Translations under genes and position numbers: made by a program
IMG/VR virus record: IMGVR_UViG_2541047728_000014
Source: a virus
Taxonomy: Duplodnaviria; Heunggongvirae; Uroviricota; Caudoviricetes
Direction: 5' to 3' (one strand)
DNA: 53,998 nucleotides
Part shown: in pieces, positions 5,150-9,855 of the stretch
How positions within the stretch are numbered: position 1 is the first letter of the stretch
How the letters are laid out: each line of letters starts with the position of its first letter
The notes under the pieces: model-generated
Databases searched by the model: none
Seen by the model: only the letters and a program-made list of their open reading frames with translations
Told to the model about the DNA's origin: nothing

Positions 5150-6268
5150 TTACAAAATGGAATATTCAGGGTAATAAACAAAGCGCCCGATCTCACCATA
5201 ATCCTGGCTGTAAATAATCACCGCTGCCATACGACGTGACCGCCAGCCGCCATTAGTTGAGTAAGCGTCTTTACCCGCTAACGTGCCGTGATACTCAACA
5301 ACGCCTAACGATGATTCAATTAGCCGTTGATGATGCCAGTGCCCGCAATGAGCGTAAACCGCCGCAGACTTGCCAAAGTCTTCTCGCCAGTCAGAGACGC
5401 AGGCAGACAACAAATTTTCAGGTTTTTTGATAGTATGACCGTGATGATATGCAAGGAATGTTTTGCCGTACTGTGTGTGGTGGACGATGGCAGGTGACAC
5501 ATCAACAGTAACGCGCGGTACATCTTCGTAAAAAGCCGCCAGCGCCGCACGTAGCCAGATCATTCCTGACTGGTCGTGATTACCTGATAACACCTGAATT
5601 TCTACATCCTTATGATTCAACAACATCTTACCTACAGCACGCCGGACCGACCGGATCGCCACGTAAACAAGTTTTGCGTAGCGTGAATCACAATCCAAAA
5701 CGTGATTACTTGATGGCGTCACTGGTAACAGTCCGTCAGTGTGGAGCACATCCCCTCCTAACAGCAAAAAAGCTTTTTCAGACATCGGTGCAGCGCCTAC
5801 CGCGTAGTCGAAGAAATCATTTAGCACGCGCTCAGCGATCCCGGTGTCGTAGCTCTCGCCGCATTCAGCTTTATGAGCAAGCGCCCCGATATGCAGATCA
5901 AATACCGGATAAAGGGCCAGGCTTTTTTGGAAATCAATTTCCGGCACTGGCACGGCCTCCGCGCGGGGTATTTCTTCCGTGAAGGCGTCACAAGCAGATT
6001 GCATTAGCCTTTCCATTTCATCGCGATCACGGGCTGTTTTAATCCAGCGCATAATCACATTGCCATCCTTATCGACGAGCAATGACTCACCATTGACGCC
6101 AAAACCCGGCGCGCGACGCGTGGATATTAAACCGCGTTTCGCCAACCGTGCGCCCAGGCGTTCGACGTTGCGTTTTGCCATTCCGTATTTTTCGGCGATC
6201 TGTTTATACGTTAGACCGTTGTTATGTTCAGTGATTAGCTGTTCATCACTAATCTTTCTTTGACACAT
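5150..6268 (-). CDS. Replication-associated protein: N-terminal HTH plus metallophosphoesterase-like domain
   Basis: ORF 5150..6319; start placed at MCQRKISDEQ (GGAGGATATAACATTATG); HTH-like LTYKQIAEKYGMAKRNVERL; phosphoesterase-like motifs GGDVLHTD, SGNHD, HCGHWHH. Confidence 0.6.
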   Translation of the reverse strand: MCQRKISDEQLITEHNNGLTYKQIAEKYGMAKRNVERLGARLAKRGLISTRRAPGFGVNGESLLVDKDGNVIMRWIKTARDRDEMERLMQSACDAFTEEIPRAEAVPVPEIDFQKSLALYPVFDLHIGALAHKAECGESYDTGIAERVLNDFFDYAVGAAPMSEKAFLLLGGDVLHTDGLLPVTPSSNHVLDCDSRYAKLVYVAIRSVRRAVGKMLLNHKDVEIQVLSGNHDQSGMIWLRAALAAFYEDVPRVTVDVSPAIVHHTQYGKTFLAYHHGHTIKKPENLLSACVSDWREDFGKSAAVYAHCGHWHHQRLIESSLGVVEYHGTLAGKDAYSTNGGWRSRRMAAVIIYSQDYGEIGRFVYYPEYSIL

Positions 6269-6302
6269 AATGTTATATCCTCCGGTTTTACATTTTGTAT
6301 AT

Positions 6303-7226
6303 TCATTGGCAGCAAACAATCTCTTTAAATGCTTCTTCTACCATGTCGAATACTTCCGGCCTGTAATAAAAAAACTCATTGCTACCATCAAATTTTACAG
6401 GAAAGTTAATTTTATAATTGCTAAAAGCCTTATGCATCGTGTTTTCTAGTTCATGTATATTTTCGGTTGGCCCTTCTAACGTTTTCACGATATGCAAATT
6501 AGGAATTCTAACGCCTGCTTTATGTGCGCTTTTTAATATCTCGTTTCTTCGTTTATTTTCCTGAACACTTACCCCAATTTTCATTTGTGTAGGCACTTCC
6601 AGATCATCAACCATGATGTAAAGTTTGCCATACTCATGACGAAGGAAACCGTATTTCGCGCATTTTGGACAGCCGTACCCGCTTTTAAGGTTGCAAGGCC
6701 TGGCAGACCACTCATGACTACAGATCTTGCAGCGGCACGGGACTTTATCTCTATGGTTCTTAATTTTTCCCAATACTTCAACATAAGTGTTAACTTTGGC
6801 TATATCTGTGATGTGTTCTTCGTGTGTTAATGTCCTTCCTTGTGCGCCTTTTAATATTCCGCATTTCGGGCAACCGCGCCCGCGTTTTAGGTTGCAAGGT
6901 GTAGCCGACCACTCATGACTACAGATATTGCAGCGGCATAATACTTTTGTTTTGTCATTAATAATTTCACCCAACACTTCAATATCAGGATTAACTTTCG
7001 CGATAGCGGCAATATGTTCTTCGTGCGATAACTTCATCTTCCCAGCGCATTTCGGGCAACCGCGCCCGTGTTTTAGGTTGCAAGGTGTAGCCGACCACTC
7101 ATGATCACAAACCTTGCAACGGCATAACACTTTTTTATGATTTCCGGTAATTTCTCCCAGCACTTCAACATCAGGATTAATTTTCGCAATAGCCGCAATT
7201 TGTTCTTCGTGTGTTAACTTGCGCAT
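6303..7226 (-). CDS. Protein with three tandem Cys4 zinc-ribbon repeats and a C-terminal T5orf172/GIY-YIG-like domain
   Basis: 307 aa; three ~50-aa repeats LTHEEHIAAIAKVNPD.EVLGEI....KV.CRC.ICSHEWSATPCNLK.G.GCPKC; C-terminal GKLYIMVDDLEVPTQMKIGVS ... GSNEFFYYRPEVF resembles the T5orf172 family (from memory). Confidence 0.6.
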   Translation of the reverse strand: MRKLTHEEQIAAIAKINPDVEVLGEITGNHKKVLCRCKVCDHEWSATPCNLKHGRGCPKCAGKMKLSHEEHIAAIAKVNPDIEVLGEIINDKTKVLCRCNICSHEWSATPCNLKRGRGCPKCGILKGAQGRTLTHEEHITDIAKVNTYVEVLGKIKNHRDKVPCRCKICSHEWSARPCNLKSGYGCPKCAKYGFLRHEYGKLYIMVDDLEVPTQMKIGVSVQENKRRNEILKSAHKAGVRIPNLHIVKTLEGPTENIHELENTMHKAFSNYKINFPVKFDGSNEFFYYRPEVFDMVEEAFKEIVCCQ

Positions 7227-7366
7227 CGTTCCAACTCCTTAAAACGCCTCAGACGCGCTACAATGCAAAAACCCACCGCGTAACCCATTTGCACAGGTTG
7301 CAGTGTCTTATTGCGTCAGAGGCGCTATCATGTGGCTAATTTTTGATTTACAGACTGGTAGGTATG

Positions 7367-7468
7367 TTATGGATTGACGCGAAGGAACAAACCGCCGAAC
7401 AAAACGACGTTTACAGCGATTGCCGCAGCGATGGCAAAAGCCACGGCGAAAACGTGTTTACTATCCAT
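7367..7468 (-). CDS. Candidate small hydrophobic peptide (33 aa)
   Basis: Hand-called ORF MDSKHVFAVAFAIAAAIAVNVVLFGGLFLRVNP with GAGAGGA RBS about 8 nt upstream; in the gap between the zinc-ribbon gene and the replisome organiser. Confidence 0.3.
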   Translation of the reverse strand: MDSKHVFAVAFAIAAAIAVNVVLFGGLFLRVNP

Positions 7469-7600
7469 TTTAAAATCCTCTCTGTAACGCTCTCTAACGA
7501 GCTAATCGCAAAAAGGCAAGCAAGTTAGCACCACATGCGATTTAGCTCGCTGGTGAGGTTGTTTTGTGGGTAATTTTGGATTTTTGCGGATCGTGGTTGG

Positions 7601-8647
7601 TCAAAGAGCGCCAGCGCGCGTATCACGTAGCGTTTTTGGTTTAAGCAGGAAATCAAGTGTCGCAGTGAAGCCATTGCCGAAGTAAAAATCTGAAGCCGTG
7701 TTTTTGAACGTTTCGAAGTAGGCGACAAAGCCGTTAATGCTTTTGTCTTTCAGGTAGTCAGCGAACGCATAGATCTTGCGTTCAAGATCCCGATCCAGTT
7801 CGGCAGGTGGTAACAGGCCGTCAAACGTGCTGTTAAATGCTTCCACCACGTCGGCAGCGTTTACAGTAGCTGATAGCTTGCGCCATTGCTCAGCGTCAGC
7901 CAGATACCCATCGAATTTAGTTACCCGGCAAATGTTGATAGGCTTAGGTGTTCCACCACGGCTGCGCCATTGCGTCAAAGCCCATTCGATTACTAATGTG
8001 ATCTCATCCTCCGTGTATGCCTTACGTGTTTTTGTTTCTGTCAGTAGTTCGATAAATGGCTTAGCATCACGACACTTGCATCCAGCTTTGTCGTTGTAGA
8101 AGGCCAAGCAACGCAATGCCGCTTCGTTTACGCCATCCTGATTGACCGTTTTTTGTCCATTTTCGCTAATACACGAAGTGTATATATCTTTTTCTCTTTC
8201 TTCTTCTACTTCTAATTCATGACCCTTTCCTGACCCGGTCATGACCCTATCATGACCTTTTGGTGTTGGATTGATTAACTTCTCTAATTTTAATTGCTCC
8301 TTCGCTGTGTTTATAGCAGCCCTATAAGCGCTCTTAGAAGTCATTGATTGGTCCAGCCTTTTTAATAACTTTAGGCAAGTTATGTGGCCTTGAGAACATT
8401 CGAACAAACCAATTTCGATGAAGTATTTCATCATTTCTTCTATACGTTTTTCAGTAGATCCGACGTTTCGCGCAATGATTCTCGCGTCATGTCGTAGGTC
8501 AAAATTCAGATTGTGCTGATCTACGTCATAAGTTATTAGTTCGAGGCAATACCAATAAAGCCCGTACCCTTCCAGGCCATAATCTAACAAAACGTTTTGA
8601 AGTTTTTCATCGCGGTTCGCATCGCTGTCATGCTTAAACCACTTCAT
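7601..8647 (-). CDS. Phage replisome organiser / replication initiation protein (Lin1244/DUF4373-like N-terminus)
   Basis: 348 aa; N-terminal MKWFKHDSDANRDEKLQNVLLDYGLEGYGLYWYCLELI matches the conserved N-terminal domain of phage replication initiators; CCGGAGG RBS. Confidence 0.7.
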   Translation of the reverse strand: MKWFKHDSDANRDEKLQNVLLDYGLEGYGLYWYCLELITYDVDQHNLNFDLRHDARIIARNVGSTEKRIEEMMKYFIEIGLFECSQGHITCLKLLKRLDQSMTSKSAYRAAINTAKEQLKLEKLINPTPKGHDRVMTGSGKGHELEVEEEREKDIYTSCISENGQKTVNQDGVNEAALRCLAFYNDKAGCKCRDAKPFIELLTETKTRKAYTEDEITLVIEWALTQWRSRGGTPKPINICRVTKFDGYLADAEQWRKLSATVNAADVVEAFNSTFDGLLPPAELDRDLERKIYAFADYLKDKSINGFVAYFETFKNTASDFYFGNGFTATLDFLLKPKTLRDTRAGAL

Positions 8648-8650
8648 AGA

Positions 8651-8902
8651 TCATCCCTCCGGCAACATCACTACATAGACATCACTGAATGCATCAAGAC
8701 GACAAACAAATCCTTTATCCATTAACGCGGCGAAGGCATCATGTACCGTATGAACAGGAAGTTCACACATTGCGGCTACTTCTTTGCGTGATGCATCATG
8801 TACCCGTCCTTTGTTATCTGCCTTTTCAGCCAGAGCCATTAAGACAAGTTTTTGAATCGGGCTATTAAGTTTTACGTTCCATGCTTTACTAATCATACTC
8901 AT
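8651..8902 (-). CDS. Winged-helix/HTH DNA-binding protein, first gene of the leftward early operon (Cro/CII-position regulator)
   Basis: ORF 8651..8980 opens with TTG; ATG start at MSMISKAWNV preferred (AGGAGA RBS about 8 nt upstream); HTH-like LVLMALAEKADNKGRVHDASRKEVAAMCELPVHTVHDAFAALMDKGFV; transcribed divergently from cI. Confidence 0.55.
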   Translation of the reverse strand: MSMISKAWNVKLNSPIQKLVLMALAEKADNKGRVHDASRKEVAAMCELPVHTVHDAFAALMDKGFVCRLDAFSDVYVVMLPEG

Positions 8903-9093
8903 CGCATTTTCTCCTATGGTTAGAGTGAACGCGCGGGCGGGCATCCCATTAGCATTAGATAGCAGTGACTGACCGCTCAACAGATCCCGCCGTTGCGTGA
9001 TATTTGTTTTTCGCTTCGCAGCGACACCGGATTTTTAAAGAGCATAAGGTAAGTGCCTTTTTGTGCCTTCAGTTATCTTTTTCCTTGCGTCTT

Positions 9094-9177
9094 TGCAAGT
9101 ATGGCCTTACCTTGTCTGCAAGTTTACAAAATGGAATTTTAAGATCAAGGCTTAAAATACACGTTTTGTGACTTGCA
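9094..9177. promoter_or_regulatory. cI / early-operon divergent control region with ~27-bp inverted repeat and TGCAAGT repeats
   Basis: TGCAAGT at about 9094, 9117 and inverted at 9171; arms TGCAAGTTTACAAAATGGAATTTTAAG (9117-9143) and the reverse complement of 9150-9177 are near-identical; candidate leftward promoter TTGATG-16-TATTTT on the minus strand. Confidence 0.5.
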
Positions 9178-9207
9178 TCAAACTTTTTGAGGTTATAGGG
9201 TAGCGAC

Positions 9208-9855
9208 ATGAAAACAAAATGGTATGACTTAGCAAAGCAGCTCATGCGGGCGCAGGGCATGAGCCAGGATTCACTCGCGGATCGTATGGGGATAACTAAA
9301 GGCGGCCTGTCACACTGGCTGAACGGTCGCCGAGAGCCAAATCTTGAAGATATTGCGCGGATTATGCGCGAGCTTGGTCGTCGGCAGTTTACTGTTACAC
9401 ATGATGGCATGGTCATTGATGATTCTGTTTCTAATACACTTCAGGCCGTGCCGCCGCGTGATTTAGGTAGTTACCCGGTTATTGACTGGAAGGACACAGT
9501 AAACAATATGGATGACGCAAGGCGTTCAGCATTACGACACGTTACGACTAGCGTTATTTGTTCAGATGACAGTTACTGGCTGGTTGCCAAAGGTGAATCA
9601 ATGAACGCGCCGCAGGGGTTGAGCATCCCGGCGGGGACGATGATACTTGTGGACCCGCACGCGCCAGCTATTGACGGCAAACTGGTTATAGCCCAGCTTG
9701 AGGAAGGGCAGATACCGACGTTTAAACAGTTGATTATTGATGGAGGTCAAAGGCTTTTACGTTCGCTCAATCCGCTGTATCCGCCAATCCCTATGAATCC
9801 AGAATCAAAAATTATAGGCGTGGTGGTTGATGCGAAGATCGTAAACCTGCCATAA
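9208..9855 (+). CDS. cI: CI-like prophage repressor (HTH plus S24 LexA-like peptidase domain)
   Basis: 215 aa; N-terminal HTH (MSQDSLADRMGITKGGLSHWLNGRREP); C-terminal S24 domain with GESMNAP (Ser) and TFKQL (Lys) dyad. Confidence 0.9.
   Translation: MKTKWYDLAKQLMRAQGMSQDSLADRMGITKGGLSHWLNGRREPNLEDIARIMRELGRRQFTVTHDGMVIDDSVSNTLQAVPPRDLGSYPVIDWKDTVNNMDDARRSALRHVTTSVICSDDSYWLVAKGESMNAPQGLSIPAGTMILVDPHAPAIDGKLVIAQLEEGQIPTFKQLIIDGGQRLLRSLNPLYPPIPMNPESKIIGVVVDAKIVNLP

Follow-up and report, generated by a model that had tools for sequence, protein, structure and literature searches.

A gene joining three zinc-finger modules to a T5orf172 domain is a probable homing-endonuclease-like cassette in the replication operon of an mEp021-like coliphage

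The gene at positions 6303..7226 of the window, by which we mean the whole 53,998-nt stretch of phage DNA that was analysed, is, judged by its predicted domains, a T5orf172 (GIY-YIG superfamily) nuclease with three zinc-finger DNA-binding modules. It is probably a free-standing homing-endonuclease-like gene of the T5orf172 class, carried as an optional single-gene cassette by an mEp021-like (mEpimmI) temperate coliphage. The slot in which it lies is a recombination-prone site of the early replication operon, and the cassette may also serve conflicts between phages. Previous work found regularly repeated zinc fingers of the CapR/DUF723/DUF4379 type in 200 of 229 (87%) phage T5orf172 homing-endonuclease genes, while homing is unverified even for the T5orf172 genes of phage ICP1 (Barth et al. 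2023, PMC10448857). The gene is a further example of this published type of selfish phage gene, not a replication factor, and its domain combination, which the initial annotation had called unusual, is the commonest architecture of the type.

The ORF list, the sequence itself, Pfam and PHROG all place a complete open reading frame at 6303..7226 on the minus strand, exactly where it had first been marked, with the zinc-finger modules preceding the T5orf172 domain. It encodes 307 amino acids plus a stop (ATG at 7226-7224, TGA at 6305-6303). A Shine-Dalgarno sequence, AAGGAG, was located 8 nt 5' of the ATG (7235..7240, minus strand), and a junction alignment of 35 loci assigned it to the cassette and not to the conserved flank. 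The same region of E. coli M1/5 is 99.6% identical, and its RefSeq product (WP_021516891.1) is named 'zinc-ribbon domain-containing protein'. An NCBIfam search with the protein gave no meaningful match, and tblastn revealed no paralogues elsewhere in the window.

The neighbours had been described as a replisome organiser and a replication HTH protein, which is approximately right. The conserved gene upstream (7601..8647, minus strand) encodes a Lin1244_N-domain protein resembling replication initiators or organisers (Pfam 5e-11; PHROG 20981/428/345). The conserved gene downstream (5150..6268, minus strand), whose RBS abuts the cassette, encodes 372 aa with weak N-terminal HTH matches; its product also matches PHROG 704 'DNA repair exonuclease', and some RefSeq genomes name it a metallophosphoesterase family protein. 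The DnaB gene comes next. Consensus scans for a promoter or terminator of the gene's own yielded nothing above shuffled expectation, and an Rfam scan of 6000-9300 gave no match. The leader upstream of the gene (7215-7366) folded overall no better than its shuffles (z = -1.0); one part of it, a hairpin at 7265-7305 that resembles a terminator, is conserved. Iteron-like 11-bp repeats were also noticed at 8217-8257, approximately 1 kb from the gene.

The N-terminal two thirds of the protein consist of module 1 (residues 1-63, 7038..7226; C35, C37, C40, C57 and C60), module 2 (residues 64-132, 6831..7037; C97, C99, C102, C119 and C122) and module 3 (residues 133-196, 6639..6830; C164, C166, C169, C186 and C189), all on the minus strand. 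Each is supported by Pfam (DUF4379/CapR for module 1), by an alignment of 39 sequences and by the AF2 model, and modules 2 and 3 also by the repeats. Module 2 carries a longer linker, GILKGAQGRT, and module 1 reached a pLDDT of ~82-91. At the DNA level, Tandem Repeats Finder detected a 186-nt period (85% matches), and a DNA repeat search found three 172-nt copies with 73-76% mutual identity. DUF4379 (E=6.2e-21, 74.8 bits, cut-off 24.5) and the CapR homology domain (E=1.9e-16, 60.4 bits, cut-off 24.2) each matched three stretches in Pfam, which puts the repeats far beyond chance. The initial annotation was therefore right about three tandem repeats but not about their length, given as ~50 aa, since the units span 62-69 aa.

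The consensus C-x-C-x2-C-x-HEW-x3-P-x2-LK-x4-C-P-K-C, and with it the cysteine motif noted earlier, is present in every unit; the additional cysteine of 'PCNLK', however, occupies a hypervariable position and is allele-specific, not a conserved ligand. The module cysteines are invariant in the 39-sequence alignment. Across 335 unique repeat units the scaffold is fixed at four of the five cysteines, the proline, nearly every tryptophan and Lys-49, and the fifth cysteine position (CxCxxC) holds Cys in 330. About ten positions per module (unit positions 26, 27, 38, 42-44, 46, 47, 50 and 52) are hypervariable, with entropies of 2.6-3.5 bits. The only solved relatives of the modules are DUF4379 proteins of trypanosome mitoribosome assembly intermediates, and a phmmer search of PDB sequences returned weak DUF4379 matches only. 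In a wider library, arrays of up to roughly 16 modules occur, joined to T5orf172, HNH-type nucleases or TniQ, or to no effector. Among these zinc modules, DNA binding has been shown only for CapR of the V. cholerae satellite PLE, where it is zinc-dependent and sequence-specific and is lost in Cys-to-Ser mutants (Netter et al. 2021, PMC8096241). By homology to CapR, the three modules here probably bind DNA as well.

The T5orf172 domain covers residues 197-307 (6306..6638, minus strand). PF10544 (T5orf172) matched residues 210-294 with 26.3 bits (cut-off 20), PF13455 (MUG113) matched the C-terminal region with 23.7 bits (cut-off 22.3), and PHROG 681 'endonuclease' matched residues 5-304 (1.5e-62). 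The motifs GKLYIMVDD, KIGVS and NEFFYY, from which this family had been recognised at the outset, are all present. AF2 modelled the domain with a pLDDT of 94.2 and a beta-beta-alpha-beta-alpha topology, that of the GIY-YIG alpha/beta core. The family-invariant residues are Y203, K216, G218, S220, R226, E261, H265 and E284, and in 39 homologues the catalytic-type Y203, R226 and E261 together with K216, G218 and E284 are invariant. The catalytic positions are thus kept, strand 1 carrying the Tyr, helix 1 opening with the Arg and helix 2 holding the Glu; this equivalence to I-TevI is drawn from motif order and predicted secondary structure rather than from residue-level superposition. The second GIY-YIG tyrosine is a lysine here (KIG), which T5orf172 proteins typically have at this position. 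MAFFT aligned E261 with E180 of ICP1 Odn, a residue whose change to alanine abolished cleavage in vitro and in vivo (PMC8263062); by this homology the domain is predicted to cleave DNA.

Both the nuclease domain (dN/dS about 0.10-0.12) and the module scaffold (about 0.14) are under purifying selection. At the hypervariable codons dN/dS was about 1.0-1.4, a value biased by the picking of sites for their variability, with 10 codons per comparison, many comparisons saturated and recombination among repeats ignored. For these reasons (site choice, few codons, saturation and recombination) we do not claim positive selection there.

We surveyed the occupancy of the slot, with the same borders, in 38 related mEp021-like (mEpimmI) phage contigs from IMG/VR. 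It held this gene, with 1-3 modules, in 15 contigs, a Rha/Bro-KilAC gene in 13 and a DUF559 nuclease gene in 5, and was empty in the remaining 5; the gene is therefore absent or replaced in 23/38 contigs that have the same replication and regulatory genes. E. coli RefSeq genomes gave the same picture of presence and absence: many E. coli prophages with flanking replication genes 88-94% identical lack the gene, and in STEC308-type prophages (STEC308 itself: NZ_CP091020, 2,824,000-2,826,700) the slot is empty and the flanking replication genes are intact at 90-94% identity. The whole cassette, RBS plus ORF, extends over 6303..7253 (minus strand; BLAST breakpoints and junction alignments), and the breakpoints against empty-slot prophages and IMG/VR loci fell at 7253 and 6307. 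Its upstream border comes after TTGTAGCGCG; downstream it ends at the stop codon, followed immediately by (A/G)TATACAWWWTGTAAAC and the next gene's RBS. The indel is exactly RBS plus ORF, a discrete insertion. Furthermore, the junction nucleotides co-vary with the cassettes: TCTGAGGCGTT (5') and ACAAAATGT (3') accompany zinc-finger and DUF559 cassettes, and TTTTACGGA and ACATT(C/T)TGT accompany empty and Rha/Bro slots. It is a speculation that these differences are immunity polymorphisms.

The slot occasionally holds several genes in tandem. Further nuclease genes are found at this place, namely the DUF559 cassettes, a weak HNH_3 protein in locus L095 and an HNH gene in mEp021, and this gathering fits the view that nuclease genes sit where genetic exchange has its boundaries (PMC10448857). 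Among close homologues the number of modules ranges from 1 to 6, the arrays gaining and losing units through recombination between repeats. One allele (L017) is a one-module deletion derivative of the present one with a recombination breakpoint inside the repeats; its identity is 92.5% upstream of the breakpoint and 99.5% downstream. Diversity per column in the flanks of 32 loci, on both sides, rose only slightly and near the slot, and a clear co-conversion signature was not found in it. All close homologues examined (mEp021_12, P0036, P0062, P0007 and 15 IMG/VR loci; ~58-75% identity or more) lie in the same slot, with no sign that the gene has moved elsewhere in these phage genomes. More widely, the model matches 257 BFVD viral proteins (E<=0.001), and tblastn located relatives in 898 phage records, of which 235 are Vibrio. 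A link to 'Hef-like' homing endonucleases comes only from the name of one BFVD match.

Of the possibilities listed in the initial annotation, a homing-endonuclease-like element fits these observations best. The gene points the same way as the replication genes and brings its own RBS, and the scans revealed no separate promoter; on this basis it would be transcribed along with them upon induction or infection. The three modules, predicted to be treble clefs linked like beads on a string, would bind a long DNA site, with specificity presumably set by the ten hypervariable surface positions of each. The tethered GIY-YIG-type domain would then cut DNA, using its Tyr203/Arg226/Glu261 set, in the genome of a related co-resident or co-infecting phage that lacks the cassette, and recombinational repair from the cassette-bearing genome would copy the cassette plus neighbouring markers. 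Such copying would explain why the gene lies where genetic exchange has a boundary. Both the target and homing as such are inferred. Counted against homing are the confinement to one slot, the differences between alleles, the lack of a clear co-conversion signature and the lysine in place of the second tyrosine. Alleles of this slot have near-identical junctions yet diverge strongly where specificity is presumed to lie, unlike what a nuclease recognising only the conserved empty slot would need.

Comparison with known systems shows both likenesses and differences. The T5orf172 genes of Vibrio phage ICP1 and other phages likewise place repeated zinc-finger modules before a C-terminal T5orf172 domain (PMC10448857, PMC8096241), are free-standing and sporadic, adjoin essential genes at boundaries of genetic exchange, and gain or lose repeats in frame through recombination. 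However, pairwise BLASTP against ICP1 ORF121 (gp122) was not significant, the nuclease domains being ~22-27% identical; ICP1 is lytic and has many paralogues, whereas the gene here occurs in a temperate, Nus-dependent coliphage group (mEpimmI) as one copy per genome in one fixed slot. Like I-TevI and the T4 Seg enzymes, the protein tethers a catalytic domain to DNA-binding modules including a zinc finger as 'beads on a string' (PMC8096241), and their genes are also free-standing between essential phage genes. It differs from them in its reversed domain order, with the nuclease C-terminal, in its second motif (KIG, not YIG), and in having a tandem array of one zinc module instead of a zinc finger plus a minor-groove helix plus an HTH. 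A positional orthologue is mEp021_12 of Enterobacteria phage mEp021 (MH706966), with a homologue in mEp013. It lies in the same slot between a replication protein and a 376-aa gene, with 75% amino-acid and 81% nucleotide identity, but has six zinc modules in 495 aa; its annotation says no more than 'putative zinc-ribbon domain-containing protein', and it goes unmentioned in the passages of the mEpimmI genome paper seen here (PMC11893012).

A reading that overlaps homing, without excluding it, is that of a 'weaponised' or domesticated site-specific nuclease for conflicts between mobile elements, analogous to ICP1 Odn. Its cuts would be aimed at competing phages, at superinfecting relatives or at phage satellites, and its zinc-module specificity residues would diversify in an arms race. 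We regard this as possible but on balance doubtful. It would account for a conserved scaffold with ten hypervariable positions in each module (dN/dS ~1.0-1.4 at these against 0.14, the former biased by the choice of sites), for alleles of an identical slot that vary in module number and in presumed specificity residues, and for the strongly conserved nuclease domain. Re-targeting by a swap of DNA-binding domains has precedents in Odn and in the E. coli phages Inny and Muut (PMC8263062, PMC10448857). Odn (ICP1 gp88, the origin-directed nuclease; Barth et al. 2021, PMC8263062) shares with the present protein a T5orf172 domain with the Tyr/Lys-Gly/Arg/Glu/Glu pattern, including the experimentally essential E180 that aligns with E261. 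The satellite that Odn targets is, however, the source of its DNA-binding part, a copied RepA_N domain, whereas the protein here has three zinc modules and no similarity to a replication initiator. The mark of Odn, chimerism with a satellite or phage replication protein, is missing, and the anti-satellite role demonstrated for Odn would be putative for the present protein. Protection of a lysogen is also unlikely from a lytic early operon with no detectable promoter for the gene. The best PADLOC match (PDC-S57, 3.2e-4, 18 bits) covers the nuclease domain only. A component of a PADLOC defence system was considered separately and rejected, as no model matched convincingly and the neighbours are replication genes.

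Two further readings would tie the gene to the phage's own physiology. It is quite unlikely that the protein has lost nuclease activity and, domesticated like PLE CapR, binds specific DNA sequences as a regulator that represses or tunes phage transcription or origin use. The match of the modules to the CapR homology domain (1.9e-16) speaks for such a role, CapR being a repressor whose DNA binding needs four Cys (PMC8096241) and which is thought to be a domesticated derivative of a homing endonuclease; so do the many relatives in the large libraries that are long zinc-module arrays with no recognisable nuclease domain, and the iteron-like repeats nearby. Unlike CapR, however, the protein has three modules and an attached nuclease domain under strong purifying selection, with invariant catalytic-type residues including the equivalent of Odn E180, and the gene is dispensable or replaced in 23/38 relatives. 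An integral replisome accessory or nicking factor, as the initial annotation had suggested, is highly improbable. All that speaks for it is the location of the gene, with the initiator-like gene on one side and the HTH-metallophosphoesterase and DnaB genes on the other. Against it, the slot is empty in five related contigs and in STEC308-type prophages, unrelated Rha/Bro-KilAC or DUF559 genes fill it in 18/38 contigs, and the cassette borders coincide exactly with the gene's own RBS and stop codon. The reading is largely refuted by these observations, and an essential replication factor was rejected on the presence/absence data; the survey likewise gave a negative answer as to a conserved essential replication family, which favours a selfish or accessory gene.

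We recommend annotating the gene as T5orf172/GIY-YIG homing-endonuclease-like, with three CapR-type zinc-finger modules, and not as a replication gene or a bare 'zinc-ribbon protein'. We suggest only tentatively, and think it rather unlikely, that the 57-aa zinc module serves generally as a programmable unit for reading DNA. Should its hypervariable residues let each module read a short sub-site, a decipherable code like that of C2H2 fingers or TALE repeats would be possible, and nature would have supplied, in the mEpimmI alleles of one slot, a series of re-targeted nucleases. With its 1-6 modules, hypervariable sites and fixed scaffold, the set of alleles is raw material for learning how such modules read DNA, and the cultivable phages mEp021, mEp013 and their relatives offer a convenient system for a first direct homing test of a T5orf172 enzyme. 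Finally, these results document that the gut-prevalent mEpimmI coliphages have a well-defined slot for single-gene cassettes in their replication operon. Its borders are precise to the nucleotide, and it alternately holds three kinds of DNA-targeting genes or nothing.

The ORF at 6303..7226 (- strand) encodes a protein of 307 aa and is preceded by an AAGGAG ribosome-binding site 8 nt upstream. Residues 1-196 form three tandem units of 62-69 aa each; the three repeats described in the initial annotation are thus real, but the units are somewhat longer than the ~50 aa given there. The repetition was also evident in the DNA of the gene, as a period of 186 nt with 85% matches (Tandem Repeats Finder) and as three 172-nt copies with 73-76% identity (DNA repeat search), and no second copy of the gene was found within the window by tblastn. 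Pfam searches, which had been proposed for both parts of the protein, matched three stretches to DUF4379, a 'probable treble clef zinc finger' (E=6e-21), and to the CapR homology domain (E=2e-16), and residues 210-294 to T5orf172 (26.3 bits against a cut-off of 20) and the related MUG113. In addition, PHROG 681 'endonuclease' spanned nearly the entire protein (1.5e-62). Structure prediction of the full protein with AlphaFold, from 39 aligned sequences, gave three zinc modules, each with a helix and three strands, and a compact C-terminal domain, with linkers of lower confidence between them (mean pLDDT 86.7). Residues G200, Y203, K216, G218, S220, R226, E261, H265 and E284 were invariant across 39 homologues. 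When the protein was aligned with Odn, the origin-directed nuclease of phage ICP1 (gp88, YP_004251029, from the phage collection), E261 corresponded to E180 of Odn, a glutamate at which the E180A change eliminates cleavage both in vitro and in vivo (PMC8263062). Based on the profile match, the modelled fold, the invariant residues and this alignment, we place the C-terminal domain in the T5orf172 branch of the GIY-YIG superfamily, in line with the original assignment, and predict that it has nuclease activity.

Repeated zinc fingers joined to T5orf172 are an already published architecture. CapR-, DUF723- or DUF4397/4379-type zinc fingers, regularly repeated, occur in 200 of 229 phage T5orf172 homing-endonuclease genes, so the domain combination is not the unusual one it was first taken for; such repeats are gained and lost through recombination, and the genes mark boundaries of genetic exchange (Barth et al., 2023, PMC10448857). 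According to the same authors, homing by T5orf172 genes lacks experimental verification, and nuclease activity has been shown for one T5orf172 protein, Odn (Barth et al., 2021, PMC8263062). CapR, the repressor of the Vibrio cholerae satellite PLE, binds DNA via a four-Cys zinc finger and resembles the N-terminal domains of ICP1 proteins with T5orf172 C-termini (Netter et al., 2021, PMC8096241). The family is large: tblastn found relatives in 898 phage records (including Vibrio 235, Staphylococcus 151 and Escherichia 142), 257 BFVD structures fitted the model at E<=0.001, and 17,291 clusters (50% identity) were matched in a library of 1.84 billion proteins. Close homologues are named 'GIY-YIG nuclease family protein' at NCBI. 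Specific to the gene studied here are its temperate coliphage host of the mEpimmI group, its single fixed slot and its clean allelic series; the passages of the mEpimmI genome paper on zinc and endonuclease topics make no mention of it (PMC11893012). The protein library also contained zinc-module relatives in much longer arrays (P0121-P0142), with up to ~16 modules in 1041-1108 aa and no recognisable nuclease domain in these long arrays. In one of them, P0142 (857 aa), the array is combined with a TniQ domain at the N-terminus, which suggests that a Tn7-like transposon uses the zinc module for target choice.

E. coli M1/5 carries a prophage that matches the region containing the gene at 99.6% identity. 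Phages mEp021 and mEp013 are relatives; they belong to the mEpimmI group, which is Nus-dependent and non-lambdoid (PMC11893012). Downstream of a divergent LexA-like repressor gene, the replication region has all its genes on the - strand, in the following order: a small HTH gene, an initiator/organiser-like gene with a Lin1244_N domain (7601-8647), a conserved spacer of 374 nt, the zinc-module/T5orf172 gene, a 372-aa gene (5150-6268) and a DnaB gene. The 372-aa product shows weak N-terminal HTH matches and PHROG 704 'DNA repair exonuclease', and is named 'metallophosphoesterase family protein' in some RefSeq genomes. Inside the Lin1244-domain gene, four tandem 11-bp repeats TCATGACCCNN (8217-8257; individual copies TCATGACCCTT TCCTGACCCGG TCATGACCCTA TCATGACC) fall in the part coding for the linker between the two protein halves. 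Their arrangement resembles that of origin iterons, comparable to lambda, in which ori sits inside gene O, and makes 8217-8257 a candidate origin of replication, located ~1 kb upstream of the nuclease gene. The spacer between the initiator gene and the slot contains a hydrophobic 33-aa ORF (MDSKHVFAVAFAIAAAIAVNVVLFGGLFLRVNP; 7367-7468, - strand), preceded by a purine-rich GAGAGGA that could act as a ribosome-binding site. Most of the related contigs that were examined have a 33-aa gene called at the corresponding place; the predicted product, possibly a small membrane peptide, had no Pfam match. A conserved hairpin, CACUGCAACCUGU-GCAA-AUGGGUUACGCGGUG followed by GGUUUUUGC (7265-7305, - strand), immediately precedes the cassette border. 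It resembles an intrinsic terminator and was retained across 12 diverse loci, one of its base pairs having changed in a compensatory way from C-G to A-U; a simple terminator scan did not pick it up. Because of this likeness, transcription may have to read through the hairpin, or be antiterminated, for the slot gene and the metallophosphoesterase and DnaB genes behind it to be expressed; this would agree with the Nus dependence of the mEpimmI phages.

We then compared the slot, the position between the initiator-like gene and the 372-aa gene, among relatives. The replication region was present in 35 complete E. coli genomes, and at least 80% of a 4-kb query including the gene was covered in 12 of them; among the matches listed, a zinc-ribbon gene was annotated in those 12, most of the other genomes had a different gene at the slot (DUF559, BRO, KilAC/Ant or Rha), and several had none. 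Against the empty-slot prophage of STEC308, homology stopped at 6307 and 7253, with 945 nt corresponding to 9 nt. Using the downstream protein as query, 80 IMG/VR loci were retrieved, 38 of which were mEp021-like (query protein 88-99% identical). In these, the slot held the zinc-finger/T5orf172 gene with 1, 2 or 3 modules (15 loci), a Rha- or Bro-N plus KilAC (ANT) gene (13), a DUF559 (Vsr-like nuclease) gene of 372-378 aa (5) or no gene (5). This survey of related prophages, which the initial annotation had called for, speaks against its suggestion of a replication accessory factor: the gene is not an essential replication component, since 23 of 38 relatives that keep the same replication genes lack it or have another gene in its place. 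Three further close homologues that were traced (P0036, P0062 and P0007) all lay in the same slot, at times beside a different initiator (HTH_36 instead of Lin1244). Phage mEp021 carries a six-module version in the slot and an additional HNH endonuclease gene separating the two genes that follow. Furthermore, two loci (L095 and L096, from E. coli GCA_949767695 and GCA_028598295; 4001-7933) have three cassettes in tandem, namely a four-module zinc-finger/T5orf172 gene (380 aa), a gene whose 635-aa product matches HNH_3 weakly, below threshold, and a Rha-family gene. The slot region behaves like a small nuclease-gene island.

The cassette borders were nucleotide-precise and common to all slot states. 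Upstream, all sequences read ...TTGTAGCGCG and then diverge; downstream, the cassette stop codon is directly followed by (A/G)TATACAWWWTGTAAAC and the ribosome-binding site of the next gene. Zinc-finger/T5orf172 and DUF559 cassettes have in common extra nucleotides at the 5' (TCTGAGGCGTT) and 3' (ACAAAATGT) junctions, and empty and Rha/Bro slots have a different set in common. In addition, the zinc-finger cassettes of two loci (L023 and L034) carry a 177-nt tail otherwise seen after the DUF559 gene of a third (L025). Judging from the junction nucleotides and this tail, the cassettes have replaced one another by recombination. The alternative DUF559 cassette (locus L002, 2940-3995, also L025, L029 and L033; 351-378 aa) has its Vsr-like nuclease domain at the C-terminus, with a PADLOC match to 'Type II methyl-directed restriction enzyme' (1.3e-8), and no recognised domain in its N-terminal ~280 aa.

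To describe the variation of the zinc modules, 335 unique 57-aa repeat units were excised from 120 homologues. Four of the five Cys positions and Pro-45 were invariant, the fifth Cys, Trp-41 and Lys-49 differed in just 3-5 of the 335 units, and entropy was low at most scaffold positions. Ten positions (26, 27, 38, 42, 43, 44, 46, 47, 50 and 52) had an entropy of 2.6-3.5 bits; they map to the loop before strand 2, beside the first zinc knuckle, and to strand 3 and the short helix to the second knuckle. By Nei-Gojobori estimates on the DNA sequences retrieved, dN/dS was ~0.14 for scaffold codons, 0.10-0.12 for the nuclease domain, ~0.06 for the neighbouring gene and ~1.0-1.4 for the ten hypervariable codons, a figure inflated by the choice of these sites for their variability; we therefore read them as 'unconstrained or diversifying' and do not claim positive selection. 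Module number also varied: among 115 homologues in which the nuclease motif and one or more modules were recognised, 2 proteins had one module, 26 two, 63 three, 18 four, 4 five and 2 six. Locus L017 carries a one-module deletion derivative of the window's allele, with 99.5% identity downstream and 92.5% upstream, which places a recombination breakpoint inside the repeats. In the window's allele (6639-7226), the hypervariable residues of modules 1, 2 and 3 are NHDSATCNHR, DKSSATCNRR and HRSSARCNSY; any two modules have four to six of the ten in common (SAT/SAT/SAR, CN/CN/CN), and the DNA of modules 1 and 2 shows 85% identity. This likeness points to a recent internal duplication, and the DNA target possibly contains repeated sub-sites.

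A free-standing homing-endonuclease-like cassette, one of the options in the initial annotation, is in our view the most likely reading, and a probable one: the cassette has precise borders and is optional in relatives. It would be expressed together with the early replication genes, its three zinc modules would bind a long DNA site, and the nuclease would cut cassette-less relatives, in which repair would copy the cassette in. Alleles found in one slot diverge strongly at the hypervariable positions, which are presumed to set specificity, and a nuclease recognising only the conserved empty slot would not need such differences. This argues for the main rival, compatible with homing, in which the nuclease is used in conflicts among phages or with satellites; we hold it to be possible but doubtful. 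A CapR-like regulator that does not cut is quite unlikely, because the catalytic-type residues are invariant and the nuclease domain is strongly constrained, and an integral replication factor, contradicted by the presence/absence data, is highly improbable. As a tractable system, the homing-endonuclease-like cassette is of value mainly for testing T5orf172 homing directly for the first time and for learning how the zinc modules read DNA.
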